Assembly (NCBI GenBank): GCA_008632985.1
Contig: QPGO01000178.1
Location: 1-64,000, forward strand
Direction: 5' to 3'
Source: Psammoneis japonica
Taxonomy: Eukaryota
Length of the DNA: 64,000 nucleotides
This document shows, piece after piece, positions 417 through 53,873 of this stretch. The translations under genes and the position numbers were made by a program. The notes under the pieces were generated by a model. The model had not been told where the DNA came from and searched no databases. It was given only the letters and a program-made list of their open reading frames with translations. Every line of letters begins with the position of its first letter. Position 1 is the stretch's first letter.

Positions 417-690
417 AAGGGGCAGTTTTTGCAGGACAGCAGACAGACAACATTGCAGCAGAGGATGTGCCATCAAGCTGACAATTGTGTTTGATGTGGC
501 AAATTTACATTTTTGCAACTTGGGTTGAGTTGTGGGTTTTGTGCTCACTTTTCAGCTTCTGCACCCGGTTGACACAATCACAGCAGTTGACAGCATTGGG
601 AATGTGGTGTTTTCAAGCCATGCAGCGAGCCTGGGGTTCTTGGCAAGACAGAGTGTGTGCCAGTTGGTGAGCCATGATGCTCCAACTCAG
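417..690 (+). repeat. Diverged direct repeat, second copy at ~2578-2840
   Basis: Shared words ttttgcaggacag, cagacagacaacattgcagca, ggttgagttgtgggttttgtgctca and agccatgatgctccaac occur in both copies; many differences are CA<->TG swaps. Confidence 0.85.
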
Positions 691-899
691 AAGCCAAAAG
701 TCACAGCAAAGCACTCAAAGGAGTTGTGTTGTTCAAAGAAAAAGAAGCAGTCTCTGGAGCACTCTTGCTGTGTGCACAGGGCAACTGCAAGGGTCTGCTG
801 AAGGAGGGTGCAGCAAGGTTGTGTTGGGCTGGGGCAATGTGGGCAAGGGGATGCAGCTGAATGTGGAAGCACAAAAGATTTAAAGGAGCGGGTGTGTGA

Positions 900-4790: not shown

Positions 4791-5402
4791 GAGATTTGAG
4801 ACAGAAGCAAGCGGCTGGCTCACCACACCAGTCAGTGGTGAGCGCATGCAATAAGTTCAAGGGTGTAAAGCCCTTCTAAACCAACAGTATGAGCATTCTA
4901 AAAGTATAGCTATATTGTTCAGTAGTGAATTTTGTTTAAGACTGGACGTGGAGGGGTCACATCCGTGCCCACCCCGCGCTTCATGCGTGCCAATGCATGC
5001 AGGATACCAAGATGCTGCATCGACAAATATCCCGGAAAGCAACCGAGAAATGCGAAAGGCACAAAGTCCATTGGAAACCATCTGCTTTAACACACCATTG
5101 TCAGAAAAATCACAAATGATTGTGTCATTAAACTGTCAGGTTGTCATGCCACCACGTGCCACTCCAATTGCAGAAAATTGTGCTGTGATGAGAAAGTGAG
5201 TGTGTGCAAGAAAGAAAACCCTGTGTGCACAAAAACCACAAATTCCCAACACTCAATTGCACACCTGCTCTGGTGGATGCATCTGTGCACAATTCAGAAG
5301 TTGTCAGGTGTTCTGCATTCATGGCCACACAAAGCACTTTGATTGGCTGAGTGGAGACAACAATGCTGTGCAGAGTTGTGTGCTCAATTTTGAAGCCAAC
5401 CC

Positions 5403-5474
5403 CAGCTGAGTGAAAAAGAAAAAAAAAAAGCCAGCCTCAACTCTTTTTATTTTGTCATTTTGGCAACCTGAGGC
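5403..5474 (+). repeat. ~72-bp hairpin-containing tandem unit split by the LTR element; second unit at 11374-11451
   Basis: cagctgag..aaaaagccagcctca..ctttttattttg..ttttggcaacctga versus cagttgag..aaaaagagccagcctca..ctttttcattttg..ttttggtgacctga. Confidence 0.75.
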
Positions 5475-5479
5475 CAGCC

Positions 5480-5827
5480 TGCTGGGCATCTAGAATTGGC
5501 TGAAAATGTGAGAAACCTGGAGCTGTTGAAACAAAGATTCTCTGATTCTTGATGTGGCAGATTTGGCAACATTTTACAGATGAATGTGCACTCATCACCA
5601 ATCTCACCTGCCTTTCAATCTGTCTCACTCTTTGGAGTGAATCATCTGGTTGCACAAATTGCATTGTGGTGTCATCAGGTGCCTGCTGTGTCACAAGTTT
5701 GAAGTTTGTTGTTGAGAGCTTCCAGGCAAACCACAGCCACCAAAGCAGCCAAGGCAAGTGCAGGAGTGAGCAGCATGGGAAGCCTCACAGGATTTGCTTT
5801 TGGCGACATTGACTTGCTGGTTCAACA
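5480..5827 (+). repeat. 5' LTR
   Basis: Starts tgctgg, ends ttcaaca; colinear with 11025-11373 (aaaatgtgagaaacc, atctcacctgcctttcaatct, ttgagagcttccaggcaa). Confidence 0.9.
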
Positions 5828-8800: not shown

Positions 8801-11024
8801 AGTTGTTGAGCCACAAGAACCCAAAAGCAAATGACAATTGTCTGAGCTGGCTAAATGAGATGTGCAGAAGCCATGGTGAAGTCATCACTGCATGAGGCAT
8901 GACCCTGGATTTGAGACAACAGGGCAAAGTGAAGGTTGAAATGATCAACTGTGTTTGAACATGATTGACCAACTTCTGGAAAAGTCAAAGTGTGCAGATT
9001 TTTCTGTGACTCCAGCTGGAGAGAACACATTTGACACCAGCGGCACAAGACTGCCAATTGAGAAGGCACTGATCTTCCACACATGGGTGGCCAAGGGGCC
9101 ATTTGTGTGAAAGAGAGGCCACATGGACATGTGCCCCACTGTTGCTGCATTGTGCACACATGTCAGAGAATCTGCCAATGAGGGTCAGAGGAAGCCAATC
9201 CATTGTCTCTCAAGTGTGTGAATTGGATGAGAGACACAAAGTTGCTGCATTGAGCATGAAGGACCTCCAAGTTGTCAAGTGGTGCATGGATGGGTCATTT
9301 GCGGTGCACCCTGATTTCAAGAGCCACACTGCCTTGGAGGAGTCATGACAATGGGCAATGGGCAGTGCAGGCTGTTTCAAAGTGCCAGAAGCTCAGCAAC
9401 ACCTGAAGCAGCACAGAAGCTGAACTTCTAGGAGTTGATGATGCCATCACTGTGATGCTGTGGACAAAGCTGTTCATGGAACACCCAAGAGCATCCAATT
9501 GACAAGATCATCCTGCATCAGGACAACAAAAGCATCATCCCATTGGAGACCAGTGGGTGCAAGAGTGCTGGCAAGTGGTCCAGGGCAGTCAATGTTGGGT
9601 GTTTCTTTGTCACTGATCAAATCAAAAAGGGCAACTTGCAAGTGCAATGCTGCCCTGCTGATGACATGCTTGGAGACTTCATGACTGAGCTGTTGCAGAG
9701 CAAAAAGTTTCAAAAGTCCAAATGAGCCATTGTGAGCTGTTGGCTTTAAGTGTGACAAAAGTGGTCCCTGTTCTTTGTGACATCAGACAAGAATTCTGAC
9801 ACATGTGGGTGAAAGATCCCTGTGACCTGGAGAGGGTGACAAGCCAAAAAGGTCAAGCAGCCACAACTTGTTTTGACAGCAAACCTCAGCCATGAGCAAT
9901 GGCAACATGATTGAGAGTGGCCTTGAACTGACTTTAAGAAGTTCATGAAAACCGCACATGAAAAGGTTCAAGTTGTTGCCACTGAGGAGCAATGTGTGCA
10001 AGGCACAAGGTTTTTGCATGGAGTGATGCAAGAGCTCCAGGACAAAATCACACTGCTGTCTGCACATTTGCCACAATGCCACAGACTCAAACAAAGTGTG
10101 CAAAGAATGGAAAAAAGCAAAAATCAAATCTCCAGATGAGTGTTCCAAATGTGGGGAGCCAGAAGAAATGGGTCTGTGGAAAGGACCATGGATGCAGAGG
10201 TGCAAAGCAATGTCAGAGACATGCATTGTGAGAGCTGGGTGGAGTGACAAGTTAAAAGCACCATGTCTGCTGCTGCACTGATGTTGCCAAGTGGGTGCAC
10301 AGGACCAACACTTCTGGCAATTCCCAGGCAGCAGCCCCATGAGACAGCAGAAGACATGCTGTGATGAAATGCATGGCAATGATGAGGTTCACTCAAGAGA
10401 CAAGAAGTGCATTGCTGGAATGAGAGGCAACAACAATGTGTGCCAGCCTTCTTCCCACAGGAAAAGTCAGTTGCCAGTTTTCCTGCCTGTGGCATGGACA
10501 CCTTGTGAAACTCATTGGCGCAGATCTCACTGTTTCACAGGATCAACATGGACTCATGATGGATGACAATGGAGTTGTCTGTCATGCTTGAAAGCAGGCA
10601 TCATTTTTCCAGCATGAGATTCAATGGTCACACCACAAGAAGAGATGGCATTGTCCCAACATGGTGTTCCTGGAGTTGACTCTGGAGATGGTCAATGGCT
10701 GGATTGTGGAGCTGGTTCATGACCAGGACAATGAAGATGAAAAAGAAAAGCTTTGCCACACTTGTGTGGTGGAGTGTTTTGTTGAGTGTGTTTGAGAAGA
10801 GACACGCTCATTCAACAACTTGGTTGACCACAGTGACAGTGACAAGTGCACACATTTTTGTGCATTTGCAACTTGCAGAATGACAATGCTGAGAGTCCCA
10901 ACACAGGTGGCAGTGATGCCAAGAATCGGGCCTCCTGAACAGACTCGAAAGCCCTAAAACTGCAACAAGCCCAATGAGTGTGGGTGGCATGAATGGCAGA
11001 ACATCATTGCAAGCATCAGGAGTG

Positions 11025-11373
11025 TGTTGGAGCACCTGGAACGAGCAAAAAATGTGAGAAACCCAGAGCCATTGAAAAGAAGATTTTTCAACTCCTCACA
11101 TGGTGGATTTGGTGATGTTTTGAAGATGGGTGTGTGTTCCTCATCACTGATCTCACCTGCCTTTCAATCTTCCTCACTCTTTGAAGTGAATCACCTGGTT
11201 TGTGCATGAGTTGCATTGTGGCATCAGCAGGTGCCTGTTGTGCCACAAGTTTGAACTTCATTGAGAGCTTCCAGGCAAGCCACAGCCACCACAGCTGCCA
11301 GAGCAAGTGTGGCAAGTGGCACAGGAAGCTTTGCAAGATTCCCTTTTGGCAACATTGACTCACTGGTTTGACG
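11025..11373 (+). repeat. 3' LTR
   Basis: Starts tgttgg immediately after the PPT; colinear with 5480-5827. Confidence 0.9.
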
Positions 11374-12133
11374 CAGTTGAGCAAAAAAAGCAAATGAAAA
11401 AGAGCCAGCCTCAGCCAGCTCCTTTTTCATTTTGCTGTTTTGGTGACCTGACCGGCACAGAACTTAAAAACTTAAAAAGCCTGGCACACTTGGGTGTCTT
11501 TGGCGTGTTGTTGTTGGTGGTGTGCGACAAAAAACCAGCATGGACGAGGGCGATGATGATGGCCCATGATGGCAAATTTTTCTGAGCCTGTGGGTGCTGT
11601 TTCTTTTTTTGTTCAGTGCAAATGCAATGGGGTTGTGGGGGGTGGTGATTTTTAAGTGGCTGTCAAGTGGGGGGAGAGTTTTTGCACACACTTCCTGCCT
11701 CTTCTCGGTCGAGGCCCCACTCTTCAAGCAGCCAATCAACACCATTGAATGCTTCGTGCAGTGTCTGCACAGTGCAATTGGTCAGTCTGTTCCCCAGCGA
11801 GTGAGCTGGTTTTCCTTTCAATTTGGTCGCAAGGCTTTTGATTGGCTACAGTGCAGTGTTAGTAGAATTCCGGGTCCTGTGCGGTTCATGGGCTGACGTA
11901 GAGCAGAATTCTATTGTGTTCTAAATTCTGAAATTCTGGGTGTGTTATTCCCGGAAGAATTTCCTGTAGGACTTCCGTATGTCTCGTAGTATGACAGTTA
12001 TTTGTTCGATGACGTCGCCTGCAAACCGAAACCGCGACCAAATGAAATTCTGCTCACTTTTTTTGTGAACAACGTTGTTGATCTAAAACTGCAACGATCA
12101 CCTGACTTCTCCATCTCAGACTTTTTTTCAACA

Positions 12134-29221: not shown

Positions 29222-31433
29222 CACCCCTGTGGTATGAATAGGGGAGCTGTGTGTGTGCGTGGTTGTGCGCGCACGGCTTCGCCGTGCGTTGAGTTTTAAT
29301 GTTAATATCCACACGAATGTGTATATTCCATAAGTAAAAATTCCTATTCCACAGCTCCCCTAAAACTCTAACCACCAAAAACCGAGGGGTCGGAAGCGCA
29401 CTTTCGGGAGCTCTTTTTCTCCGCACAAAAAACACGCGTTTCGTCGACTCGACCATGATGATGCCTCGTGGTTCTTCCCCATCGCCTTCCCAGGACGCCG
29501 ATCCTGCTGACACCGTTGCTGGTGACACTGATGCAACAGGCAATGTCATCATTCCGGTTCTCGTGGGTGTGACACGTACAAAATAAGATGCTGCAAACTC
29601 ACACTGTTGTTTGCACGCTCCACCGCCTCCCACAGATGCTGTCACGAATTCCAACGCCGCACCTGCGTTTCGGGCCCCTGGCATGCCCGATGCTGTTGCT
29701 CCTGCCCTTGCTGCCGCAGGCACTGTTGACACTGTCATTGCATTTTGCCAATGACGTCCACAATGAAATGCCAATGACTCACACTTCTTTCATTCTCGCC
29801 CCACCGCCTCCCACAGATGCCATCACGAATTCCAACGCTGTGCCTGCGTTTCGCCCCCCTGGCATGCCCGATGCTGTTGCTCCTGCCCTTGCTGCCGCAG
29901 GTGCTGTTGATGCTGTCATTGTCTTTTGCCAATGACGTCCACAATGAAATGCTTGTAACTCACACTTCTTTCATTCTCGCCCCACCGCCTCCCACAGATG
30001 CCATCATGAATTCCAACGCCGTGCCTGCGTTTCGGCCCCCTGGCATGCCCGACACTGTCAATCCTGCCCTCACTGCTGCAGTTGCTGTTGACACTGTTGT
30101 TGTTTTTGCTTTGGAAGGAACACAATGGATGACGGATGACGGCGGACCAGGAAACCCACGCAACCACGGCCTGCTGATGGACGACACATCAATGGACATG
30201 AATGGGTGGTTGGCTCTCGAGTGCAGTCCAATCTTCAGAACACACAGACACATTGTGCAGCTCTCTGTGGGTTAGAAACCTGATGACAATTAGATGGCAG
30301 GCATGCTTTCACAGTTTTTTAGTTTCAAGTTGGAGAGGTCAGCAAATTGGCATTTGTTTGCAGGTGACTTGGCAAGGTTTCAAATGGTGCATGTGACTTG
30401 GACACTGCTCCATTTTCCAGGACTGGGTCATCATGTGCAATTCCATGAGAGGCCACTCTCGCCGTTTGAACTCCACATGTGATGCACAACATGCTGTTTT
30501 TGCACGTTGCTAAAATGGAGGCAGGCAGCAACGTGCTTTTGGCAAATGCTCACCATGTTTGTCACCATTGGACCTTCAAAACCAGTGCCTTGTCGACAGC
30601 CATGCTGCCACTTTGCATGCCGGCACCTTCTCTGCCCGTGTTCCATTGGCTGCGTCCTCCTTCACATGTTGCTGCGGTTCATCTTGACACTTGTTGTTGG
30701 CTCCGATTGGTTCCGCTGGGCTCTGGGTGAGTCTCAATCACCTTCAGACAGACAAGGTTCTGCTTGGGAACAATCATCCCGAGAAAGGTTGTCACCACAC
30801 CTCCTGTCATGGATGCTCCTCTGCCACGCCCACTGAACCTTGACGTCGGTTTGTTGCTTTTGTTTTTTGACCTGGTTTCGGAGCTGCACCCCAGACCGTT
30901 TGAGAGAAGGCTCATCAGTGCCTTCCACAACACGGCGACACGAACGAGAATCCATTTCTCTGGGGACGCAATGACAGGAGCAGACCAATCACGGCACTGT
31001 GTTTGTGTTTCAGGCACAGGATCCGGCGAACAGAAGCCCAAATCCTCCGGATGGCAAATCGGCTGTGTTTGGGTAACGACAGCGGGTGCAACGGTGCCGG
31101 CCAACACAGGAGGGACTGCCGCATCAGACATGGCAGGCGGGGATGCGTCATGTGGTGTGGGGGACGAAGAACGGGAGGTCGTCATGGTCGAGTCGACGAA
31201 ACGCGTGTTTTTTGTGCGGAGAAAAAGAGCTCCCAAAAGTGCGCTTCCACCCCTCGGTTTTTGGTGGTTAGAGTTTTAGGGGAGAACATGGTTCAGGATT
31301 TTTCCTGCTACTGTCAGCATTTGTGTACAAATGCATAAATAAATGTGAGGACATTTATATAAAAATATAATGAATAAGATATAAACTGCCACGTAACCAT
31401 GACATCACCATATTCTCCCCTACCACAGGGGTG
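29222..31433. mobile_element. Nested MULE-like element with long interrupted TIRs and 9-bp TSD
   Basis: TSD actcccgcc at 29213-29221 and 31434-31442; the empty site is visible in the second copy (50293-50301). Terminal IR cacccctgtggta; inner ~105-bp IR 29355-29458 vs 31182-31284; an ATG at the inner edge of each TIR. Confidence 0.92.
29596..30105. repeat. 181-bp tandem repeat, ~2.8 units, inside the nested element
   Basis: caccgcctcccacagatgc at 29621, 29802 and 29983. Confidence 0.95.
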
Positions 31434-31754
31434 ACTCCCGCCTATTTATTGTACCGGCCGGTACCAAGAGGTTCGATTCTCTCATGCTTTTGAACTTCAT
31501 TCAGCACCCCGTCTACTCACCACCAGTCCAAAACAACACGAGTGCATCTCTTTCAACTGGAAAGTTGATTGACAGAAGAGTGAAGAAAGATCTCTTTCAG
31601 AACTTTTACTCTCTTGACTGTACCAGCATAATGTAAGTGTGACGAATCGGGAAACTCGGGTCGAGTCGTCGACACGGCCGGATTGAAGTCAAAAGGAGGT
31701 CCGCAGGAAAACAAAACAAATAAAGAGCTAAGAGAGTTATAATAAGACTGTGAA

Positions 31755-32180
31755 AAGATGCCAGCTCGATTCCCAGATAAAGGTGACTCGATGCAAAAAA
31801 TCGATACTACTCATTGCATGGAGTGATCTGAGTAACAAACCCCGGCCAATCGCACGATACTTTGCACCTCGGGCAAGAATAAAGCCCACCCAACAGTATC
31901 TGAATAAATCCCATAGGAGTGATGTTTCTGTCACCAATCTTCTCCAAATCAAACATTGCCAGCATAACCACGTACACGTCCTTTTCCCACCTGCAAATGC
32001 TCCTTGAAACCAACTGATCCACCACGAATGACGTTGTTGTAACCTGCAAAGATGTCCTCCAAGAGATTGATATCTTTCGACCTCCTAATGATACCAAGTT
32101 TTCTGGGTTGTCAAATAGATCAGGGTGTCCATAATGTCATCGGATGCAGAGAGGTCTTCAAGGAATTTCTTGCAAGGCCA
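31755..32180 (-). pseudogene. Captured, internally deleted fragments of 1,3-beta-glucan synthase (GT48, FKS/callose synthase family)
   Basis: PLCIR*HYGHPDLFD, SKDINLLEDIFAGYNNVIRGGSVGFKEHLQVGKGR, GAKYRAIGRG and YRFFASSHLYLGIEL match GT48 hallmark motifs, with stops, frameshifts and deletions. Confidence 0.88.
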
Positions 32181-33009
32181 CCTAGCTTGCCAGAGAACTC
32201 ACACACCGTGTTTTAATACATGATCCATGAACACCACTGTTTGTATCATCAACATATTCCATAAAGTAAATCATGAGGCCCTTTCGTGGGGAAGAATCTG
32301 CGTGCGGACCGAGAAACAAACAGAATAAGTGCCGGACCGCTGTCGTCTGTTGGAAACACACCAACCACGAGCCGCGACGTCCAGAGCTCGTCTCAAACAC
32401 TCCAAAGGTGCCATACACATCAGCGCCTTTTATCTATATTTATTATGAAACGAATGAGGCATAGGTAAAGGGATGAGAGGAGGGAAATAATAACAAACTC
32501 GACGAAACATACCGGAACGACGACAACAGCGGCAGACTCATACACCGAAGGAATCGAAATCGATATTCTTGCGCGGAGTGGCACTTGTCAAAATTCAGCC
32601 AACACGTAATGGTGCTATAGACAAATGTCGACAATATCCTGAGTGACTCACCTCGTGAAAACAGGTGACAACGACGGTGGACGCGAAACAAATTCGCCAT
32701 GGTGGCTACGCAAATTCTGCGTAGAATTTTTCGTTTTTGTACCAGGAACCAAAAAAATCGCACGTTGCGATTTTTTTAAGCTGTGCCAGTTAGCCTGGTA
32801 CAGCGTTATGTTACGATCCGTGGGAGGTCTTCTCTGTCTTCTTCCGTACCACTTACAGACCTCCCAGTTGGGAGTGGCGCAAGCCACAAGCGAGCCTTCG
32901 TCTTGAGCTGGTCGAGTGACACAACATGGGCTCAATCACCCCGAAAGCAGCCATCAGCGCTCAGACGAGGAAACGGCTTACAATTCCAAGACATTTAATG
33001 AGACTGGTG

Positions 33010-34400
33010 TGGCAGCACGTCGTCTCGATTTAGAGTGGCTGCGAGAGTTGTGACCTCCTGTGATGAGACCTTGCTGGGCACAGAACAGAAACCATGAGAG
33101 AAGGTTTCTCAGGTGGTGGGACCACTTTGTTGACATGTGTCATCTCCAAAGTGCGCTGGCGCGTGTCTTTTGTTCTCAACCAACACCTGTGAGTTGTGTC
33201 ACTTCAAGAGCTTCGCAGTCACAGACAACGCTGTGCTCTCAAAGTCAAAAAAGCCTTCAGCACTTTTGGGGGAAGCAGCAGCAGCAGCAGCATCCACATT
33301 GCATTCAAACAGGGCACTGTGGTCCTTGACAGAGCTCAAAGGTGCACGTCCAGACCCCTCGACCCACCAATGTCATTCAGAAAAGGTTGCTGGGCTGGGG
33401 CAGCTGCAACACCAAAGTTCTTGTGAAGAGCTTGTTGCACATTGTCAGCGACTTGACAGCAGTGGATTTCCTTGGGAGTCAGCAGAGCAGGTGCCAGGGC
33501 ACTGCAGTTGGCTTCAATCACCTCGCAAACTGCCTTGTTGTCATGATGATGATGGCTTCCAGAGCAGTTGGGAGCTCGGGATGAGCAAAGCTTGCCAGCA
33601 CAAATGACTTGAGCTTGACAAAGCCACTGGCAGGTCCAAAATGGTCATCAGCACATGAGGACACAGCACTGAGACATGAAGAGCAGAGCATGGTGTGAGA
33701 GTTTGCATGAGACAAACAGATGTCTTGTGTGCTGAACACAGCAAGCTGGCATGCTGGCCGGATGTTCCAGCATCTTGACTGTGATGGAAGTCATCATGGG
33801 GAGCCACCTTGTTGGCAGCAATGGCTGTCCAACCATGGGCCTGTGGGCAGCATCACTAAAAAACAATGGAGCCACATGCTTTTTGCAAGCTGAGCGAACC
33901 TCAAAAGCAGAAAATCTGGTCTTGATGGACTGAGCCAGCTGAGGTTTTGCAACCATGATGGTGAAAGAGATCAAAGTGGGTCTTGCCTGATGGAGCTGAG
34001 CGAGGTGAGACCAAGTCTCATGCCAACAGGCAAGACAAGCTGGAGCGAGCCAGAGAAAGTCAATGTCATGTGCAAAGAGATGTTCCAGACATTGTGAGAG
34101 GATTAGAGCTGGTCTCTGATCTGAAATGGTGATCAACCGTGTCAACACCCAGCCCATTCCTCAAGATAAAGTTCAGTCATGGTTTCCTGGATGAAAACAA
34201 TGTTTGGTCAAGAGGTTTGATGTGGAGCAAGGGAATGATCATTCCCTGTCAGAAAATGAGTGCAAGGATGGTCATTTTGGTGATGGTGTTGAGTTTGGCA
34301 GCTGTGTGTTGGATGCAAAGCATGGCAAATGGCAAAGTTGATCCCCAACGGCAGTCATGGTGTTGCATGACTGAACATTGTGGTTTTTGAACAAGCAAGG
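33010..34400. other. TpA-depleted degenerate block D, origin not recognised
   Basis: TA nearly absent (survivors ctaa, ttag, one ataa); Tyr-free ORF fragments. Confidence 0.8.
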
Positions 34401-34601
34401 ACATGTAATGTGATCGCAGCAATGAGCCGCAGAAGCTAATGATTGCTGTGATCTCTCCCTCTTCATCATGTCATGATGAAGTTGAAATCCTACAACCGTT
34501 ACTACACCTTCCGTTAAAATCCGGCCTAAATACTTTAATTCAAAGGTCTTAGTCGTAGAACACATCATGACATCTTTCCGCACTGAAATTCGCCCTCTGT
34601 G

Positions 34602-36043: not shown

Positions 36044-38869
36044 CCTCAATCTTGGTCGCTTCAAGATAAGTCAACACGGGGTTGAACTAAACAAACAACA
36101 ACTTGTGCGAGCTCTGGGTAGCCGCCTGGGTTGAAGTCACCATCGTGGCCTATGTACTCGACAAATTACACGTTGTACTCGTACACTGCAACAGAGTCAT
36201 GCTCGTTTTCATAGTCTGTTCATGTAGTGCAAATAAATCCAGTTTGCATCCCGCATTGAGCACCGCTCTTTGTCACTCTCTCCAGAAATCCGGAACAGCA
36301 TCGGCCTGGACAACAAGAACACCGCAGAAGTTATTATAGTAGAGTCGAAAGCTTTTTTTTTGCTGCTTCGATGATTAAGGATTAAGGCCCTAGCTAGAGG
36401 GCCGTTCTGTATTGATTGTTCGCTGCCCGCGGCGGGGGACGTCTCCAGACGACTCCAGCCGGCCAGCTCTGCTGGCCGAGAAATCTTGTGTGCGGTACGG
36501 TACATACATTGCGACCGGCAGCTCTCTCTCTACGGCACTAGCTACTAGAGAGAGAGCTACCGTACCGGTAGCTGCAATAGAATTTGTATTGAAAGAGTCT
36601 GTCAATCAGTGCGTTTGAGAGTTTTGGCCAAATTCGGTGAACGCAGGACAGAATCGACGTCGTTTTCGTGCACACTGGGGCCCTGCGAATTGCTGAACCA
36701 TTGCGCGATTTATCCCGGGTTGGCGTCAAGCAAACTGAGTGTGGTTGTTGTCCATTCGTCGAGTGTCGACAAGTTGACAAAGACGCTCTGCCGTCTGCCA
36801 ATGCAAGGACAAGGCGTCTTTGCGCCACGCTCTTGGTGCACGCCATTTGGGTCCGCCTCTTCCTTGACACTGCCTGCATCATCATCGTTGACGCGTTGGC
36901 ACCTTTTCTTGTCCTCATCACCAGCAGACAAGGGAGAGAATTCTCCATCTAGAATCAAGGCATCTTCAACGTCTCCATCATCATCGTGCTCGTCGGCAAG
37001 CGGGAAGACAAGCTGTCGTGCTTTCATGAGCTGGTGAAAGTGCAGCACCTCCAGTTCCTCGCGAATGTCTGCATTGTCAACAGAGAGAAAAATGAAGATT
37101 GTGAATTTGGGGTCACAAACAATGCACCACTGCCTCAAGCATCTTTCAACTCACTGATTCCGTCAAGGGTCATGAACACAGCAAACGGGTCCTCCAACAC
37201 TTGGATGCACTCAAACAAGGTGGATGAACCAAGTGCTGCAAACACAGCAAAGCATGTGCCAATGCCAAGGGATCCCACATCCAGAGCAATCTGAGCAAAT
37301 GTGTCGGTGTGCAGAATGGTGGAAGAAACAGCACAAGCAGCCGAGCAAAAAAGCCAACAACGCCTGCGGAGTTTGGCACATCTTCACAATTCTCAGTCCC
37401 TCCAGGCTCTTCCCAATGTGTTGCAAGCACTGCTGCAGATGAGACACTTCCAAGCCAGAGAGTCTGGCAGCTTTTAGATTCTCACAAAGGACAGTCAGCA
37501 CCACCAGTCTCCTGGTGCAGGCTGGTTCAAAGAGAGCACAACTGACTTCCATGGTCCTTGCCGCCTCTTTTCGACCACGACTGGTCAACCAATGGCGGCC
37601 ACATGATGAAGTCGGCAATGTGAGAAAACGCAAGATCTCATCCCCAATCAAGGCAAGTTGTCTCAGAACATTGTCAGGATCCAGTTGACACACATGGCCT
37701 TGCGTCTTCCGGAGCCTCCATCCCAGTCACAAAGGGCGTGACTCAAACAAATTTGGAAGGCAAAGGATCGAAACTCTGTGATGTGTGGGAGAGCATCCTC
37801 TCAATGACGAAAGGCGAGACCAATTGAAATGGACAGGGGCATTGCCATGGCTGTTCGTAAGAACCAGAAAGATTAGAGTGCAGTGTGAGAGTTACAAAGT
37901 CAAAAGCCGTGACACCATTCTCTCTCAAACGAACCAACGATTCTCACGATTCTGAGCTGAAAGGAATCACTTGCCAAAACCAAGGAGAATCCACTCCATG
38001 GCAGAGGCACTCCACAATTCATTGTCTTTCTTGGCATCGTGCCAGCAGATTGTCAGCCCAACACTCACAGATGCAGACACAACAGTCACGACCTTGATCA
38101 GGCAGCAGAAAATGACTTTCAGAGCAGCAACAACATTGAGAACAAAGAGAACGACTGGACGTGTCTCTTCTGTGTCCCTTGCAAGGTCCTCCTTTCATAA
38201 AAGTTCTTCTTTTTGCTTCTTTGCAACACTGGACATGTTCAGATCCCAAGCAGCCATTTTCATTGGAGATTTGGAGTTCTCAGTGGACGATTTTAGTCCA
38301 GCTTGCATCATGACCACCTCCTCTTTTTTGGAGTTCTCACTCTTCCTGTTTAGATTGGCGCTGGCCCGCTGGTGCTCATCCCCATGAGACATGCCTTCTA
38401 CATCACCAAGACTGGGTCTGGAGGAGGGACGCATGTCAGCCATTTCCTTGCTTCCCGACTCCCCCAAAGTGCTGCCAGTCGAGGCGGCTCAATGCAACAT
38501 TTTGGCAGAACCGGGACTGCCAACCATGCTGTCATCAAAACCAAAAGTTGCAAGCAAGTGAGCATCAACCTGGTGCTGTCTTCTTCATCTCAGAGAGTGG
38601 AGAGTCATTGTCGTCATCAAACAAAAGTCATTGCAAATCCAAATCGCAGCACTTGACTGTTGCCTGACAAAACCATGAATGTTTGTGTGCATGTGCACAT
38701 GTGTGACAATTGTGCAACTTCAAGTCACCACAAGTGCGTGTGACATCTTCAGGGCCCAGACATTGAACCCGGATTTGCCTCATTTTTCTGTGATCCAAAT
38801 GACATCCAAACTTCAAATCTTTTGGTTGGAGCTTCAAACCATCATCATCTTCTGTCTCAACTCTTAACA

Positions 38870-40960
38870 TGATCATTGCAGCAAAAGCGATGATCAGATC
38901 ATGCATTGCATTGTTCCTTCTCTCTTTCCTGCTTCTGTTTCTTGTCCTCTTCTCTGTCTCTTTGCACTCTGTGCTGGCCCCACTGGATCCGTCGTGGCAG
39001 GGCAGCTGGCAGAACCGGGACACAAGGCCCTGTTGCTCGAGGTGGGAGGTGACCAATGAGATCCAGTGTTTCATGCCATGTCCAGCCACTTCAGCATTTC
39101 ATTTGATCCATTTGCGCACGGCTTTCTTCAGTGTTCTGACTGCTGCAAGACAATGCCACAAAACAGTGTCAACCAATTGCAAACTTTTCCGCAGCAATCA
39201 GATTGCAAACAGTCGATTGCATTGCTGCAGAGCAGCAACCAGTTGACTGCAATCACAAAGCAATTGTGTGGTGTTGTGAACTGACTGCAATTGTGGCTGC
39301 AATTGCCCTGCCGGCCAGGTGCACCCCCCTGTGCAGGGGCACCCCCTGCACAAGAGCGCAATCCGCACAGAAGAAAAGCCCACTGCAGGCAAAGAAATCG
39401 AGCTGTTTCACTGATTTCAGCTAAAAAAGAGCTCAAATTTTGATTGCAGTTGATTGCAATGGCTGATTGTGACTGCAACCTCAGCTCTTCCCCGACAATC
39501 AGGTCATTGCAATCAAGTTTGCAACAGCGATTGTAATCAAAGTGGGGCTGATTGCAGTCAATCCTGGCAACAAGTCAATGGTGCCACAAAATGTCTTGGG
39601 AGGACAAGAGATTTCCTTGCTGTGGGGGAGAGTTTTGGGTGGATCCAATTCAATCAACACCGCCGCCTTTGTGATGGGAAAAGCTGCCTGCTTTGATGAC
39701 ATTGCCAACACAACTGGTGATGCCGATTGGTCTTGGGAAGCAACAGAAAAAATCCAGATGTTGTTGATGGAGCGGCAGAAGATTGTCAAATTTGGCAAAG
39801 AAACAGGGCGGTGCTCCTGAATTCATTCAGGTGGTGGAAACAACACTCGGCTTGCCCTGCAATGACGATCCGAGTTCCAGCATTCAGAATGGCACAGCAG
39901 CCACTGGCTGGATTGGACATCCAGACAGTGGGGGAGTTTGCAACACTGTGCATCAGGCTTTCATCTGATGAAGTGTCAAACAGTGTCCAGCAGGCAACGG
40001 AGGTCTGACAGTGATTGCATGTCACCTGGTGGAGTCTCTCATCCTTGCAAATTCTTTGGAAGTTCCAACGGCATTGTGCGTCAATGTCTTGAACCAGCAG
40101 ACTTGTCAATCCACCCAATTCTTTGCCAACAAAGAGGTTGTTCTTTCCACAGGTGCTTGTGACACTCCCCCAATTTTGTTCAAGTCTGGCATTGGCAACA
40201 TGGAGAATGACACCACTCCACTGCCTGGTGTTGGCAAGAATTTGTGCAATCACTGGAGTGTGGGGACCTTTTGGGGATTGGGGTCCAAGGCTGTGGAAGA
40301 TGCACCATTTCTTTTCCAGTCTCCAACACGCAAAGTTTTTGGACCCAAGGTGTCTGGGACACCCTTGTTTCAAATGGAGGTGTCTGGAAACTTTGGACAT
40401 CTTGCATGCCGCTGGTGCCCACAAATGCTTTGGGCTCTGTCTCTCCATCTCCAAACTCTTCTCAACCACTCGTCAAGGCCAACATCTCTTTGGAACACAT
40501 TGATGCCACCACGGATTGTCTTTTGCAACAATCTTTTGCCATTCTTTCAAGAGCTCGTGGAACAGGACATGGTGGTCCCTGGCAACCTGTGCCTCCCAAT
40601 GCTGCAATGGAACAAGTCCAAGCCTTTTTGGTGGAAAGTCTTTCCTCCAATCACCATCCTGCTGGCACTTGCAAAGTCGGGTCTGATGAAATGGCTGTCG
40701 TGAATTCCAACTTTGAAGTGCTTGGGACCAAGAAACTTCGGGTCATTGATGCATCCGTCTTTCCCCTGCCCCCCTCTGGGAACACCTTGGCACCAACCAT
40801 GATGGTTGCCTTGCTTGGAGCAGAGAAAGTGAAAGCTTCTTTTGATGAAGGCATGAACATGCTGACAAGTGCCCCAACATCTGCTGCAATGGGATCTGGG
40901 TTTCTTGCATGTCACACCTTTTGGAAATTGGCTGTCGCTGCTTTCCATTTGTTGAGATGA
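38870..40960 (+). pseudogene. GMC oxidoreductase pseudogene
   Basis: AGPTGSVVAGQLAEPGHKALLLEVGG (~38973), GRVLGGSNSIN (~39625), KEVVLSTGACDTPPILFKSGIG, LPGVGKNLCNH and HHPAGTCKVG...LRVIDASVFPLPPSGNT; frameshifted, Tyr-free, interrupted at ~39150-39560. Confidence 0.9.
39170..39563. repeat. Array of ~11 degenerate GAYTGCAATC-like motifs within the GMC pseudogene
   Basis: gattgcaaac, gactgcaatc, gattgcagtt, gattgcaatg, gattgtgact, gattgtaatc, gattgcagtc and similar words, on both sides of a G/C-run core at 39315-39350. Confidence 0.7.
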
Positions 40961-41530
40961 TGCAGAGCGCAGCTTCAGTCTCCCCGGCGGTGCTCATCAG
41001 ACCTTTGTGCTCCACTGTGCAGCACACTGTTGGAAGCAGATGCACTTCCGAACCTGATCTGAGGTGTGCCAACAGCAGCAAAAACTTCGAGATGATTTCC
41101 AGCGACATCCGAGTGGCCATTTTTAAGAAGCAGAACATGTGTCTGTCACTCCAGACCTGCGCCAGAAGTGGTGGAGAGTGGAGACTACAACTGCCATACG
41201 AGAGTGTTGTAGACTCTAGCTAGAACTGCCGTACTCTAGCAGAGGGCCCCACTCTCTACTGTGCTCTGCTGCTAGAGTAGAGAGAGAGAGAGAGAGGGCC
41301 CTGCAGTGCATTTCCCTGGACTCGACTTGTTGTTGGACTCATCACTCTCCCGGGACTCATCACGCACGACGCACGTACTGATCGCTTTTCTTTCTCACAT
41401 TTTTTTATTCGACTTTCGACGAGTGTCACTTCTTGTTTCTCTGTTTACGATACATATCGCTGTTGTCGTTGTCTTATTCCAACTGTGTGCTGCTCGCTAT
41501 CTCTGCAATCGTATACAGTCTTGTCGGATA

Positions 41531-42720: not shown

Positions 42721-42784
42721 AGGAAGTTTGCGCCGCACCACGACGGGTGCAACATCGCTTACGGTGCGAATGAATTACTTCCCC

Positions 42785-43118
42785 CTACATTCGAAGAATG
42801 GATTCAAGCATTCTTCGTGCTTGATTTGTGTACATTCCACCAAACAGAACATCGTGGTTAAAAGTGATAGAGATTGCATACAGTTTCCCTCTTTTCGTGA
42901 CCCTGTACAGTAGTAGAGCGATCTGTATGCGAGGAACAATGTGCCCATGGAGAGCGCAAAAGGTCTGAATCCTCCTTACCTCTGGTAACGGCGGTTCGCT
43001 CTCATACCCATTGTAAAAGTCGAATCCAAAGCTGCCAAACAACGACGTCATTGCGACATCTGCCTCTCTGTCCCACAACAAATTCAGGGTCGAAAATCAC
43101 TGGAACGACGCCATCATC
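42785..43118 (-). pseudogene. Truncated 3' duplicate of the fructosamine kinase gene
   Basis: Colinear with 53874-54212 (DREADVAMTSLFG); frameshifted; 5' part replaced by block F. Confidence 0.9.
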
Positions 43119-45540
43119 AAATGTTGCGTCTCCCTCAGCTTCGGAAAACAATCCATTTGCAAAGTTGCCGGTGACAGATTCTGAGTCGGAAGACAACGAG
43201 AAAGAATGGGGAGAGCCACTTGAACTCTTGGCCAGTGGGAATCACATGGACTCTTCAGATGAGAGACAAGAAAATGAGCATGCAAAAGAATTTCTGTGGA
43301 AAAATAAAATAGAGAGGGAAGCCTTGGATTGGAGCGTGCCATTCACTGCAGTGCTTTCAGCATTGCCATGCCCTTCTTGACCTTGAAACCACCAAAAGCA
43401 CTTGCCACCTTGATGAAATGAGGACATCAAGCAATCCAAGATGTGTTGGACAAAACATGTCAGAATTGGACCTTGGGATTCAGAGCTGGCAAGTGCAACA
43501 AGTGGAGAATGAACTTCCCTGCACAATGTTCCAGAAGAGGGAAAGCAACCTCAGGAGAGGGAGTGCTCCAGTGCTTTCCTCAGAGTGGATCATCTGTGCC
43601 CACATGCCAGCAAGAATGATGCCACCCATTGCCATCTGCAATTTGCAGCTGTGAGGGACTTTGACTCAAATGAATTGTGGGGGTGCATTGAAAAGCTTTG
43701 CAAGGCCTTTTTTGCAGATGTTGAGAGTGGCAAATGAGTTGGAAAGGAGCCCAATTTCTTTCCAATCAACACAATCTCAGTGCATTGGATGGCATTGGAT
43801 GGCTTTGTGAAAGTGCAAAAATGACAAGCAATGACACTCTCCACTTGAAAGCTCTTGCTGGTCTGAAAAAAAGAACCAGACTGTCTTAGTTTGCTGCCAT
43901 GGATGGCAAACCATCACCACAAAGCAAGATGAGAAACATTCCAAGCATTGCCAATGCAAAAACCAAACAAACACCGGAAAGCACATCACATCATTGTGGA
44001 AAGGCACCATGCAATCTCTGTCCAAGTCACTCTGGAAAAGCCATGGAGAGTTGGGACTCAGAAAAAACCTTGGGGAGTTTGGACCCAAGGTGTGTGCCCT
44101 TTGCTCCTGCTTGTCACACTTCACTCATCATGCAGTTCATCCCAGACAACATAAAGAAAAGTGTCAACAAATTGGCACCCAGACAGAAGCTCTTCTGGTG
44201 CAATCAAATGTTCAGACAGATGTGTTGCAGTTTTGCAACCTGTCTGGATTTGCCAATCAAAACAGCAGACAAGTCAACGCACTTGTTGGGACAGTGTGTT
44301 TAAAGAGAAAATGGTTGTGCCTCTTCTGACCCATCATGTTGAAACTAGCCCAATGGAATTTGTGTGCCACCAACCACATTGTCATCTTTCCAAAAAGTCA
44401 CTTCAGTTGGCAAGCTGGATGAGGACAAACAGTGCTGTTCTGGAGCATCTGCTTGTGCTCAGATCTGAGGTGGGACAAAGGCTCAATCAAAACAACAGGT
44501 GCTGCCATGATTTGGAACACACCAGTGCACAACAACCCCAAATCCCAAAACACCAGAGCCCAACATTGTCTGAAAACAGCAATCCTCAGGAAACCAAAGA
44601 AAGTTTTCAAAAGGAGATGAGTGCTGCAATGGAGTCATCTGCCAAACACACGCATCTTCCAAAGGCAGGGCACCAAAGTGCAGAAAGCAAAGTGGTTCAC
44701 TGCAAAGACAGCAAGCAACAGAAAAAAGGAAAAACTCCGTAACATGAAGCAACCAACTGCCAGCAATCTGATGACTCCAATTGGGAGCTCCCCTCTGCTG
44801 CACACCAAGATTGTGAACTGACACATTGGGCTGGCTCAACAAACATGTTCACAATGAAGGTTTTGAACATGCGTGCAAAAGCCACTTGGTGCAAGCAGCA
44901 CCCAATGATGTGAAAAAATGACTGAGATTTGACAAATGACATTCATAAAAAACACAGTTGCTTTGGCTTCAGTCTGGCAACTCTGCAGCTGTGATGCCTT
45001 GCACTGGGATCCCAAGTTGACAGATGTTGGCCTGGCTTAATGAGCACATCTGCAATGAAGATTTTACACATGTGCACACATGCCGCTTGGTGAGAGGCAC
45101 CCAACTCAGGTGACATGATGCCAAACACAAGGATCCTGGCTGAATGTTGGCCCACAACTCTCAACAAACATGTGCTGATGTGACAAAAAAGTGTTGGCAA
45201 TCATGCGGAAAATGTTCTCAAATTGGCAAAACCTTTAAAAACAGCACCTCTTGTTGTGTGTCGCCACCAATTGGTTGGTCAATGTCTCATCACACTCCTC
45301 TTCAGAGAAGCACACAGCAGTTCTCCATTCCATCAACCAAATTGGCACCTTGCACCCAACCGGCTCCGCACATTGACTCACATCTCTCTTCAGGGAGTGC
45401 CAAAGAAATGGACCCATTTCTTGTCTTGACACCAGAGAGCATCACTGAAACCCAGCTTTGGGTGTGGCTCCAACTATGAACAAACACAGCATCTACACCA
45501 CTTCCTTGCAGTTTGTGCCTGACATCATCATCATGGCAGA
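43119..45540. other. TpA/CpG-depleted degenerate block F, origin not recognised
   Basis: Same composition as blocks A and B; surviving TA mostly in ttaa/ctag/ttag/ataa. Confidence 0.8.
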
Positions 45541-50151: not shown

Positions 50152-51492
50152 CACTCCCTCGGATCGTAACATATTTCAACTGGCGCACAGAGAGATTTCT
50201 ACGTGATTTCTACGTACCTCGTACGAATCACGTAGCCGTAATAGCACAAAACGTCTGGCCTCCACCCCAATCCTATGCCGGTAACACTCCACACTCCCGC
50301 CTATTTATTGTGCCGGCCGGCACCAAGAGGTTCGATTCTCTCATGCTTTTGAACTTCATTCAGCACCCCGTCTACTCACCACCAGTCCAAAACAACACGA
50401 GTGCATCTCTTTCAACTGGAAAGTTGATTGACAGAAGAGTGAAGAAAGATCTCTTTCAGAACTTTTACTCTCTTGACTGCACCAGCATGGTGCAAGTGTG
50501 ACGAATCGGGAAACTCGGGTCGAGTCGTCGACACGGCCGGATTGAAGTCAAAAGGAGGTCCGCAGGAAAACAAAACAAATAAAGAGCTAAGAGAGTTACA
50601 ACAAGACTGTGAAAAGATGCCAGCTCGATTCCCCAGATGAAGGTGACTCGATGCAAAAAATCGATGCCACTCATTGCATGGAGTGATCTGAGCAACAAAC
50701 CCCGGCCAATCGCACGATGCTTTGCACCTCGGGCAAGAATAAAGCCCACCCAACAGCATCTGAATAATTCCCATGGGAGTGATGTTTCTGTCACCAATCT
50801 TCTCCAAATCAAACATTGCCAGCACAACCACGCACACGTCCTTTTCCCACCTGCAAATGCTCCTTGAAGCCAACTGATCCACCACGAATGACGTTGTTGT
50901 AACCTGCAAAGATGTCCTCCAAGAGATTGACATCTTTTGACCTCCTAATGATGCCAAGTTTTCTGGGTTGTCAAACAGATCAGGGTGTCCACAATGTCAT
51001 CGGATGCAGAGAGGTCTTCAAGGAATTTCTTGCAAGGCCGCCCAGCTTGCCAGAGAACTCACACACCGTGTTTTAACACATGATCCATGAACACCACTGT
51101 TTGCATCATCAACATGTTCCACAAAGTAAATCATGAGGCCCTTTCGTGGGGAAGAATCTGCGTGCGGACCGAGAAACAAACAGAGTGAGTGCCGGACCGC
51201 TGTCGTCTGTTGGAAACACACCAACCACGAGCCGCGACGTCCAGAGCTCGTCTCAAACACTCCAAAGGTGCCATGCACATCAGCGCCTTTTATCCATGTT
51301 TTTTGTGAAACGAATGAGGCATGGGTGAAGGGATGAGAGGAGGGAAACGACAACAAACTCGACGAAACACACCGGAACGATGACAACAGCAGCAGACTCA
51401 TGCACCGAAGGAATCGAAATCGACATTCTTGCGCGGAGTGGCACTTGTCAAAATTCAGCCAACACGCAATGGTGCTGCAGACAAATGTCGAC
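50152..51492. mobile_element. Second, right-truncated and TpA-hypermutated copy of the Pack-MULE-like element
   Basis: 50152-50301 is identical to 29072-29221; 50293-51492 is colinear with 31434-32632; lacks the nested insertion. Confidence 0.93.
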
Positions 51493-53550
51493 TGCCACTT
51501 GCTGCTGTGAGAATCCACTGGGTTCTCTCATTTTGGTGTGCCTCACCTTCCTCTTGGTGGCCTTGTGCAAACAAAAAGCCATTTTGCGAAAGATGGGAGC
51601 GAGCTTCAAATGATGGCTCATCAATCAAAAAGTTGCTTCAGAATCAAAATGTGCTGCAATGTGCCCCTTGGCACCTGCATTGCCATTGCTGGCATTGTGG
51701 CAATGACAGAGGGTCAAAACATGGTTGTTTTGGCTTTTCAGCCTTGCAACTCAGCTGCAATGACAGGATTTTGACAAAATGCTCACAACCCACCGCAAAA
51801 AACCTTTTTTTTTTGAGCACGGCACATGGCATGCTACCACTCTGCCACAGCAGGGGTTGCAGATTCACACTGGCACAACAGATTTGTCATTTTGCCACAG
51901 AGGCTGAGTGGTGCCTGATGCACAACAGCATGCGCCCCCAACTGCAACAAAGATTGTCTTGCACAGTTTTTTGTTGCAAAAAACCTGAGAAAGCATGTCG
52001 CTGCAGTTTTCAGTGGTGGACTCAATTCAAGGGAGGCTGTGCAATCACATGAGCAGTCAAGGTCACAGCTGCAGCTGCAAAAGCTTTGTTGGTTGGCAAA
52101 AAGCTGTGCTTGTTTGGGCAGGTGGCTAAAGTGGTTGCTGTGGATGGAAACTGTGCCCATTGAAAAACTTCATTGTGGGTGGGTGCACATTCACTGAGTT
52201 GGGCCAATCCATCAAGAATTTGCAACTCTGGTGTGCAGCATCATGGCAGCTGAGTTGCCAAACTTGAAGCTGAGACAGACATCATGTCTCCATGAACATT
52301 TGCAGGACTGCACTGCATTTTTTTGCCACTGGGTGTATCTTGCCAAGTGGCACACATTTGCACATTGAAAAACTTTTTAAAAAAAAGATGCTCTCCTTGA
52401 TTCATGCTGAAAGTTCGTCAACTCAGGATCCTGGCATGTGGCATCATGGCAGCTGAGCTGTCTGGTGAAAGCTGCTGAAGTGACCATGCTTCCGTGGGAG
52501 GAGCGCTCACTTGATTTCAGTTTTTTTGTTTGCCGTGAGGCCAAATCCAACAGCATCATGGAGAGGAGCAGAGTTCTCACTGACAGCAGTCTGCGTGACT
52601 GTTCCACAGGGTTGTGTTCTGCCAAAAGGGGGTGCGGGCAATGTTTTCTTGCTGGTGAAGATGCACCTCAGCCTTGTCTGTTCTTGTTCCTTGTTGATGG
52701 GAGTCAACCACAGCAGATTTCAGCTGCCACAGGTGTCAATCATCAAATCCTTGCTCTTGATGCCTGTGTGCCAATGCCTTTTGTCAATGTTGAGCCATGC
52801 CTTGATGACACAGCATTGAGCCGTCATGCCTTGGCTGCCAAGGGCAAAAACACAGTTTTTCAAAACACCAACACACTTCACTTCACCATGCAAGCTCAGT
52901 GCTTTTTCTGGAGTTGTGCCAACAATGATGAACATCAGCCACAAAACTGACTGGCACCCTCCAAGCTTGACACCCATCCCCCAAAGACAAACGGCATGTG
53001 TGTGGTGGTCAAAGTGCCCCTCAAAGTGTCAGGCAAAAAAAGCTTGGTGGCAAGAACAGCTGATGCCTTTGATGTTGGTGGTCTTCTCTGTCACAGCCAT
53101 CATCAAAGCCAAAGTTGTTTTTCCATTGTTTTGACAGCCCCTGCCAAAAATGGAAAAAGGAGCAACCCCCCTCATGTTTCATCGCAGGTGGCAACCAGTC
53201 TGACATGGGCTGAGGTTGGTGTCACCAATGTGGCCTTTCTTGTGGATGAGTGCACGCCACCATCATTGTTGGCCAGTCATTGTCAAAAGAGCAACAAGAA
53301 GCCAAGACAAATGCACCAATTTGTGAACGAGTTTCTTCAATGTGTGGAGCTGTGTGACTCAAGGGTTGATGGCCTCTCTTTTTCATCTGCACACAGGGTC
53401 ATTTCTGATGCACAGCTCTTTTGTCTCGAACTGCTGTTTCAGACGATGCCTGCGTTGATGTTGCCACTGGCAAAATTCCTTCATTTTTTGTGCTCCAACT
53501 CCTCTCGCTTTCGACCACTTCCACTGTGTGTTCTCAGCACTCTCCACCAG
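51493..53550. other. TpA/CpG-depleted degenerate block G, origin not recognised
   Basis: TA almost absent; ends abruptly at ctagctagtagaggttagagagag (~53554). Confidence 0.8.
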
Positions 53551-53609
53551 ATCTAGCTAGTAGAGGTTAGAGAGAGCCTGTGCTTCTTGGAGGGAGGTGG
53601 GTGCCTGCT

Positions 53610-53809: not shown

Positions 53810-53873
53810 AGGAAGTTTGTGCCGCACCACGACCTGTGCAGCATAGCTTGTAGTGCACATGAATTAGTTTCCC

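Follow-up and report, generated by a model that had tools for sequence, protein, structure and literature searches.

Probable region-confined conversion of TpA to TpG/CpA in nuclear DNA of the diatom Psammoneis japonica

In fungi, repeat-induced point mutation (RIP) turns CpA into TpA, needs a duplication and mutates both copies, and strand-coordinated clusters of changes are typical of RIP and of APOBEC. A signature of another kind has been measured in the rhizarian alga Bigelowiella natans by Mettrop et al. (bioRxiv 10.64898/2026.01.13.699255): in mutation-accumulation lines, 231 of the 302 nuclear mutations fell in integrated giant-virus and virophage regions, and 230 of these 231 were A>G or T>C, by the text of the preprint all at TpA. 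The same preprint describes 124 clusters of TpA-poor, CpA+TpG-rich windows in the B. natans genome and proposes an ADAT2-like DNA adenine deaminase, untested there; the part of its text available to us mentions neither diatoms, nor stramenopiles, nor CpG. In diatoms, transposons are CpG-methylated via DNMT5a, and DNMT4 enzymes, which occur in many of these algae, are reported to be relatives of RID, a factor of fungal RIP (Hoguin et al. 2023, PMC9998398). Here we report on a window of 64,000 nucleotides from the diatom Psammoneis japonica (GenBank assembly GCA_008632985.1, contig QPGO01000178.1, positions 1 to 64,000 of the forward strand), in which a fragment of a GT48 (1,3-beta-glucan synthase) pseudogene has lost most of its TpA in one of two copies, and in which seven blocks are nearly free of TpA.

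A preliminary description of this window had read the difference between the two copies as a 'reverse-RIP' of repeat DNA and knew of no description of such a process. The latter view has to be given up, as the same signature is the one measured in B. natans; going by the preprint, the diatom would be the second lineage showing TpA hypermutation after B. natans. No report of the TpA to TpG/CpA signature in diatoms was found in the literature searched, which lacked most subscription journals. On the evidence presented below, we consider it very probable that a mutational process, limited to particular regions, turns TpA into TpG/CpA in diatom nuclear DNA.

The two GT48 copies and the direction of change

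Copy 1 (31434-32632) and copy 2 (50293-51492) align over 1200 columns at 95.75% identity (MAFFT, BLAST) and differ by 50 substitutions and one indel, 51 differences in all. Read from copy 1 to copy 2, 45 of the 50 substitutions are A>G or T>C, and 41 of these 45 lie at TpA: every one of the 24 T>C changes is at the T of a TpA, and 17 of the 21 A>G changes are at its A. Three substitutions go towards A/T (two C>T and one G>A), all at CpG, and the remaining two are A>T. For the 55 TpA in copy 1, copy 2 has CA at 23 sites, TG at 16, CG at one and TT at one, with 14 kept as TA, and wherever copy 2 has a TpA so does copy 1, giving a direction of 40:0 (binomial p = 2e-12). By comparison, transitions occurred at 4 of 548 A/T outside TpA (Fisher p = 9e-31 against TpA bases), and 3 of 56 CpG were changed (TpA sites versus CpG sites, p = 3e-14). 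The recount, with 40 of 55 TpA changed, agrees closely with the preliminary estimate by eye of about 50 differences, affecting about 40 of about 55 TpA and about 3 of about 55 CpG. The observed/expected ratio (o/e) of TpA is 0.61 in copy 1, 0.18 in copy 2 and 0.57 in the window outside the blocks.

Both copies are a pseudogene fragment, not a gene. A 44-residue stretch scores above the PF02364 cut-off of 37.2 bits in both copies (copy 1, 39.9; copy 2, 38.1), further pieces align with homologues in other frames, and the reading frame is not intact; a PDB sequence search with the copy frame containing HYGHPD gave no match at E <= 10. Stops and frameshifts are common to the two copies, indicating that their shared ancestor was already a dead fragment. 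Positions 50152-51492 form one unbroken repeat unit of a 150-base flank and copy 2, whereas the unit at the copy-1 locus is split by the element at 29222-31433. Only about 5 of the 51 differences are background differences, which argues that the duplication is recent and that the hypermutation was fast. Within copy 2, the changed fraction of TpA by quarter is 45, 79, 71 and 94% from left to right (Mann-Whitney p = 0.008), rising towards the adjoining block, and the hypermutation ends abruptly on the left at about 50307. The kept and changed TpA of copy 2 showed no significant nucleosome-like spacing (best period 162 bases, permutation p = 0.225).

Five concordant lines, namely composition, family copies, GT48 homologues, a GMC oxidoreductase pseudogene and a Copia element, support TA as the ancestral state and a change from TA to TG/CA. 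As to composition, copy 1 is at the normal TpA level of the window whereas copy 2 and the blocks are depleted, which points to TA as ancestral. The family copies were compared through contigs of the read set X1: at 25 of 25 listed differing places between 50480 and 51424, X1 contigs from other family copies disagree with the letter of copy 2, and in 24 of these 25 places the letter of the other copies is the A or T of the TA state. The GT48 homologues were fetched with the PF02364 stretch and then aligned back onto both copies. In HYGHPD, the Y is found in 8/8 homologues and is C in copy 2; in INLSEDIF, the I is found in 7/8 and is V in copy 2; the Y of AKYR (5/5) and the Y of SHLYLG (4/5) are both H in copy 2. 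After LG, copy 1 keeps the frame of the homologues, whereas copy 2 carries a one-base insertion.

The two remaining lines come from protein remnants inside the blocks. Over about 500 aligned residues the GMC pseudogene has no Tyr, against 13 in its closest homologue (P0122); at 8 of these 13 the pseudogene has Cys or His instead, and its Cys count is 17 versus 4 in the homologue. By comparison, the intact control gene UBA3 keeps Tyr at 9-10 of 11-12 positions. A PDB sequence search confirmed the GMC identity, with no Tyr positions aligned. In the Copia remnant, Tyr of the homologues faces Cys or His at 19 of 37 positions (P0392) and at 22 of 43 (P0393), overlapping matches being counted. The window peptides LLWC, NPC and CCP stand against LLWY, NPY and YCP in P0392, while WCMD faces WFVD there, so that the Tyr of WYVD is not seen in this homologue.

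The direction argued in the preliminary description from the GT48 motifs and from the Copia peptides is borne out by these comparisons, as is its statement that the change runs opposite to fungal RIP; homologues side with TA at the GT48, GMC and Copia loci, a site in the motif IQM excepted. RIP in its usual direction, with CpA/TpG ancestral and copy 1 mutated to TpA, would yield copy differences of exactly the class seen here, and the IQM site favours copy 2 as ancestral. We nevertheless assign this explanation a negligible probability. Copy 1 has normal TpA and it is copy 2 and the blocks that are depleted; the homologues match copy 1 at 4 of 5 tallied motif positions and in reading frame; Tyr has given way to Cys/His in the GMC and Copia remnants; the other family copies carry TA; and RIP would have mutated both copies, in contrast to the 40:0 direction. 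RIP in its usual direction is thus refuted by the homologue, composition and family-copy comparisons.

TpA-poor blocks across the window

A 1-kb dinucleotide profile combined with a scan of the gaps between TpA delimited seven near-TpA-free blocks: 1-3729, 5130-11847, 29370-31269, 32855-34406, 36588-41124, 43015-45475 and 50598-53554. Together they make up 23,854 bases or 37% of the window, close to the preliminary figure of about 40%. In the blocks, o/e is 0.02-0.09 for TpA, 0.10-0.61 for CpG and 1.64-1.92 for CA/TG, as compared with 0.57, 1.01 and 1.19, respectively, in the remaining 39.8 kb; individual 1-kb bins in the TpA-poor footprint have TpA o/e of 0.00-0.10 and CA/TG o/e of 1.6-2.06. 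The G+C content of the blocks stays near 48% because the loss of TpA and the loss of CpG push it in opposite ways. The edges of the blocks are sharp to about ten bases and lie beside active genes: TpA occurs every 5-15 bases up to 36587 and next at 36711, and at the right end of the block 50598-53554 it is back at 53554, 53558 and 53561. The locus-targeted A:T to G:C mutator of the preliminary description, confined to TpA and acting on whole regions, is supported by both the 4 changes at 548 other A/T and the seven blocks.

The blocks, putatively silent, contain a Copia element, an inverted-end transposon and pseudogenes, and four of them have no recognisable content. All block frames of at least 110 aa were within the 75 frames scanned against Pfam, and of the shorter block frames (65-109 aa) 150 out of 157 were scanned as well; matches in block frames were limited to the GMC domains, a fragment of fructosamine kinase and a single zinc knuckle. 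Sensitive BLAST detected no similarity between different blocks, and the spacing of leftover CpG in the blocks gave no significant period (best p 0.08-0.10 at 160-178 bases). Paired long terminal repeats (LTRs) flanking a polyprotein with a Copia-type reverse transcriptase identify 5130-11847 as a Ty1/Copia element: a protein search with the read-through translation returned 22 matches, all 22 carrying PF07727 and one from Pseudo-nitzschia, aligned to 6047-9734, while a Pfam scan of whole frames of the region, with X at stops, found no family. In the element at 29222-31433, the layout of which resembles that of Mutator-like elements although no transposase was found, the outer 130-150 bases keep TpA, and the interior (29480-31160) has a TpA o/e of 0.09 and a CpG o/e of 0.61.

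Selection offers an account in which mobile elements avoid TA and CG, for example to escape nucleases, with no mutation pressure involved. Avoidance of short words is indeed known in phages. The blocks, however, are dead, with stops, frameshifts and Tyr replaced by Cys/His, and the changes in copy 2 fell on a pseudogene fragment that was duplicated very recently, as its 150-base flank is 100% identical and copy 2 shows about 5 background differences. We regard selection as highly improbable.

The distribution of outcomes over the strands bears on how the changes were made. In copy 2, the 23 CA and 16 TG outcomes form 22 runs versus 19.9 expected (z = 0.71), and each of the seven blocks has CA and TG in roughly equal numbers. 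These patterns indicate a strand-symmetric mutator acting site by site. RNA hyperediting, that is, ADAR-like A-to-I editing of transcripts whose edited copies were then reverse-transcribed and inserted, might be considered in view of the typical 5' U preference of ADAR (given in the Discussion of the B. natans preprint) and of the retrotransposon among the targets. It requires one-strand runs and a restriction to retro-copies, both of which are contradicted here: A>G and T>C occur intermingled along the same strand, an element's two LTRs have come to differ since it inserted, and a DNA transposon and unrelated flanking DNA were hit as well. In addition, ADAR prefers G as the 3' neighbour, whereas the preference here is for C or T. 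Hyperediting is scarcely credible as the source of the footprint.

The neighbourhood of the changed sites is likewise specific. By hand tally, the 3' neighbour of the mutated adenines in copy 2 is C in 14 cases, T in 16, G in 5 and A in 4, and that of the 28 spared adenines of kept TpA is A in 13, T in 7, G in 4 and C in 4. The blocks retain 73 TpA, of which TTAA accounts for 26% (elsewhere 4%) and CTAA for 26% (elsewhere 7%), while ATAT, GTAC and ATAC are almost gone; A is the 3' neighbour of 53% of the leftover block adenines versus 20% elsewhere. The tallies indicate T-A-Y as the preferred target and TTAA as resistant.

CpG follows a different course. Copy 2 has lost 73% of its TpA sites and 5% of its CpG, and the oldest-looking blocks have reached o/e values of 0.02 for TpA and 0.10 for CpG. 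The preliminary count of few changed CpG holds for copy 2 (3/56); in the mature blocks CpG is not spared (CpG o/e 0.10-0.61). The two stages indicate that loss of CpG to TpG/CpA in the blocks is a separate and slower process, which is most simply explained by decay of 5-methylcytosine in methylated transposon DNA.

The Copia LTRs (5456-5822 and 11002-11368) lie 5.5 kb apart and are 74% identical. The two LTRs of an element are identical at insertion. Between these two, CA<->TG swaps account for 16 of 33 adjacent double mismatches, and two further repeat pairs within blocks have 8/21 and 11/27, as compared with 1/13 and 1/24 in two control repeat pairs outside the blocks. A CA-versus-TG mismatch is what is expected when an ancestral palindromic TA or CG is resolved independently in each LTR. 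The divergence of the LTRs together with the swaps argues that the mutations took place in chromosomal DNA once the element had inserted, and not at the RNA or cDNA stage. Furthermore, an X1 contig and the window disagree at 17 positions over the block stretch 51498-53844 (2.35 kb), with CA<->TG swaps at 51926/7 and 51929/30 among them, so that at least one block appears to have been still changing after the split of two haplotypes or strains; over 43200-49772 (6.5 kb), an X1 contig differs at only 9 places. These differences give an indirect hint that the activity is recent or continuing.

Copy number does not account for the choice of targets. X1 word depth over 49898-51473, the GT48-fragment unit and 250 bases to its left, is 700-2433 versus about 62 in single-copy flanking genes, which places the unit and these 250 bases in abundant repeat families. 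Copy 1 is a member of a multi-copy family (X1 word depth 700-1290) and has a hypermutated block on either side, but has itself escaped change, and in copy 2 the damage is graded from the adjoining block; location, not copy number, thus decides, and the process is not induced by repetition. The 'reverse-RIP' of repeats suggested in the preliminary description is not tenable in this form, since copy 1 is multi-copy by X1 depth and retains a TpA o/e of 0.61.

A base modification in silent DNA could in principle make the caller read TA as TG/CA, and the footprint would then be an artefact. The platforms of the assembly and of X1 are off record, and X1 backs the letters of copy 2 in part only, for example with a depth of 145.6 of 572.2 at 50599. 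On the other hand, X1 contigs at a word depth of 55-62 reproduce 43200-45475 and 51498-53554 of two blocks (the comparison with the block 43015-45475 began at 43200), which makes an artefact unlikely. The CA<->TG swaps between X1 and the window are unlike miscalls, the blocks contain pseudogenes with stops and frameshifts as well as LTRs diverged to 74%, and a two-strand consensus of miscalls would not yield a clean CA or TG per site. Taken together, we consider an artefact very unlikely. The spliced run X2 had no depth over 43200-45563 and 51474-53443, which we do not take as evidence of silence.

Genes and other features of the window

The NEDD8-activating enzyme frame indicates that the window is diatom nuclear DNA and not Bigelowiella (Table 1). 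Its named diatom relatives include Striatella, Asterionellopsis, Odontella, Synedropsis, Seminavis, Cylindrotheca, Nitzschia, Pseudo-nitzschia and Epithemia, and one match carries the label of another organism ('Tiarina...'). Long open frames at 20387-21754 and 22699-23889 lie on the same strand as the methyltransferase frame. At 45812-49862 (minus strand), a 3526-letter X2 contig is spliced over six introns of 78-106 bases with GT..AG ends and joins the frames 45997-46785, 47269-48765 and 48793-49863 into one transcript. A further X2 contig of 699 letters covers 50190-50889 with 17 other letters, indicating that some copy of the GT48 unit appears to be transcribed.

The 3' end of the fructosamine kinase gene is duplicated (42536-43110 / 53610-54203, 86% identical), and the fragment copy abuts the block at 43015-45475. 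As a candidate case of hypermutation this pair was rejected: it shows ordinary divergence without the TA pattern. The named nearest relatives of the GMC pseudogene (38958-40852, plus strand) are choline dehydrogenases of metagenome-assembled marine bacterial genomes, and a gap of about 390 bases (39191-39584) separates its aligned parts; a foreign origin is possible on these matches. Tandem or internal repeats of about 180-350 bases occupy 4215-4787, between the two leftmost blocks, and a pair of 545-base units, 77% identical, lies at 57862-59063 within a gene with a Spondin_N domain.

Table 1. Features of the 64,000-nucleotide window
Feature	Position	Strand	Remarks
Leftmost block	1..3729	+	TpA o/e 0.02, CpG o/e 0.10; gag-type zinc knuckle 1180-1833; direct repeats 403-689 / 2564-2840; continues past the left end of the window
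Copia block	5130..11847	+	Ty1/Copia-type LTR retrotransposon; LTRs 5456-5822 and 11002-11368; polyprotein remnants 6047-9734
C-5 cytosine DNA methyltransferase domain frame	21958-22695	-	PF00145, E = 3.5e-8; gene-like normal part of the window
NEDD8-activating enzyme frame	27313-28644	-	Full-length relatives at most 77-78% identity; nearly all named matches diatoms
Inverted-repeat element	29222..31433	.	2212 bases; terminal inverted repeats; 9-base target-site duplication; inserted in the copy-1 unit
Copy 1	31434..32632	-	Unmutated reference copy; TpA o/e 0.61
Block	32855..34406	.	Content unrecognised; 6 TpA, TpA o/e 0.06, CpG o/e 0.29
GMC block	36588..41124	+	Near full-length GMC oxidoreductase pseudogene 38958-40852, zero Tyr codons
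Block	43015..45475	.	Content unrecognised; begins within the duplicated 3' fragment of the fructosamine kinase gene
Left flank of copy 2	50152..50301	.	150 bases, 100% identical to 29072-29221; 11/11 TpA kept
Copy 2	50293..51492	-	Hypermutated, decayed GT48 (1,3-beta-glucan synthase) pseudogene fragment; 40/55 ancestral TpA changed
Block adjoining copy 2	51493..53554	.	4 TpA, TpA o/e 0.03, CpG o/e 0.19; no family recognised
Intact fructosamine kinase gene	54065-55036	-	

A proposed process and its relation to known systems

We propose that a process converts TpA to TpG/CpA in certain regions, producing A:T to G:C transitions at the palindromic TA step. Its substrate would be DNA already sitting in the chromosome, with both strands hit equally and site by site. 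The targets would be silent, dispensable stretches between active genes, such as the Ty1/Copia retrotransposon, the inverted-end DNA transposon, dead gene copies and unrecognisable DNA. The process runs near saturation (TpA o/e 0.02-0.09), leaving TTAA and CTAA, and can spread about a kilobase into adjacent DNA, as in copy 2, while CpG in these blocks gives way to TpG/CpA at a slower pace. The sequences themselves show the signature, which way it runs, that it arose after insertion, and its context, strand symmetry and sharp edges; an enzyme that is steered by marks of chromatin or silencing and acts as genome defence would presumably carry it out.

Several observations weigh against this proposal. 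At the IQM site, M is found in 4/5 GT48 homologues and in copy 2 (Met, ATG), whereas copy 1 has Ile (ATA). The sharp left edge of the hypermutation at about 50307 falls in the middle of the repeat unit and is without explanation. The letters of copy 2 at 50480-50493 have X1 support of 0 of 404.9 depth, and the X1 contig over 51498-53844 leaves the window at copy 2, its first 473 letters not fitting; with these gaps and the misfit at 51498, copy 2 is without full independent read support, and the other haplotype or strain may lack it or carry it in another form. Besides the platform of X1, its independence from the assembly is off record. Pfam scans of the window frames revealed no deaminase gene in the window, and the label 'silenced DNA' for the blocks derives solely from their content and their loss of CpG.

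As to chemistry, TadA/ADAT enzymes act on an A preceded by U/T (U33-A34 of tRNA), and 5-hydroxymethyluracil favours TpA in dinoflagellate DNA. We would rank adenine deamination of the TadA/ADAT type above a mutagenic modification of thymine, and the latter above error-prone repair. The leading candidate among these mechanisms, although we favour it only tentatively, is the one put forward in the B. natans preprint, in which a TadA/ADAT2-like deaminase turns adenine into hypoxanthine. Alternatively, the T of TpA could be modified by a TET/JBP-type enzyme to 5-hydroxymethyl- or 5-formyl-uracil, which mispairs with G and gives T>C. The strand-symmetric outcome at a palindromic step would fit a mark on both strands, and because R-T-A is the complement of T-A-Y the data do not separate this chemistry from adenine deamination. 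The preprint proposes adenine deamination instead, likewise as a proposal, and we hold modification of thymine to be rather unlikely. To our knowledge, no natural nuclear DNA adenine deaminase with such a role has been identified.

Adenine deamination, or its thymine counterpart, could belong to a defence with a wider distribution. It is conceivable, though we would not yet count on it, that diatoms and chlorarachniophytes share a chromatin-directed defence which edits A (or T) at double-stranded T-A-Y in silenced mobile or foreign DNA until its coding capacity is destroyed. Such a defence would be a repeat-independent A:T counterpart of RIP, possibly old in the SAR (stramenopiles, alveolates and Rhizaria) lineages, and it would employ a natural enzyme that edits adenine in nuclear DNA. 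If shared between the two groups, the pathway would represent a widespread, unrecognised eukaryotic means of disabling mobile DNA, it would account for the many diatom repeats that protein and family searches fail to recognise, and its enzyme would be of interest to the base-editing field. In the diatom the signature is near completion over a third of 64 kb, whereas the sole earlier case is one preprint on one rhizarian alga at low saturation. The features that narrow the mechanism are the T-A-Y/TTAA context, strand symmetry without runs, sharp edges, spread into the flank, independence of copy number and the coupled, slower decay of CpG. The footprint is easily scored, and phylogenetic profiling of deaminase and TET/JBP genes against it offers a direct route to the enzyme.

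The proposed process resembles RIP of Neurospora and other ascomycetes in its dense regional transitions in mobile or duplicated DNA, the killing of coding capacity, the leakage into neighbouring DNA and the shifted dinucleotide ratios. It differs in that chemistry and direction are opposite, a multi-copy member is left untouched at a direction of 40:0, and strand-coordinated runs are absent. Deamination of 5-methylcytosine accounts for the loss of CpG to TpG/CpA in the blocks but cannot remove TpA, the loss of which precedes that of CpG here. With APOBEC and ADAR editing and with TadA-derived base editors the diatom process would share deamination against mobile elements; by comparison, it leaves no one-strand runs, and its substrate would be double-stranded DNA in place in the chromosome.

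The closest likeness is to B. natans. In both, as far as the available text of the preprint goes, the changes are almost only A>G/T>C at TpA, giving TpG or CpA by strand; they are confined to particular regions, of non-host or mobile DNA there and probably so here, with long-term TpA-poor, CpA+TpG-rich clusters; and they are independent of repeats, the nucleocytoplasmic large DNA virus (NCLDV) region of B. natans being single-copy. The evidence there consists of de novo mutations, and here of sequence comparisons alone. The host there belongs to the Rhizaria, and here it is a diatom (Stramenopila); the target there is viral DNA, and here a Copia element, a DNA transposon and pseudogenes. Furthermore, the T-A-Y preference and the TTAA resistance found here are absent from that text, the diatom blocks lose CpG as well, and TpA o/e is 0.45 in the NCLDV region of B. 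natans as compared with 0.02-0.09 in the diatom blocks.

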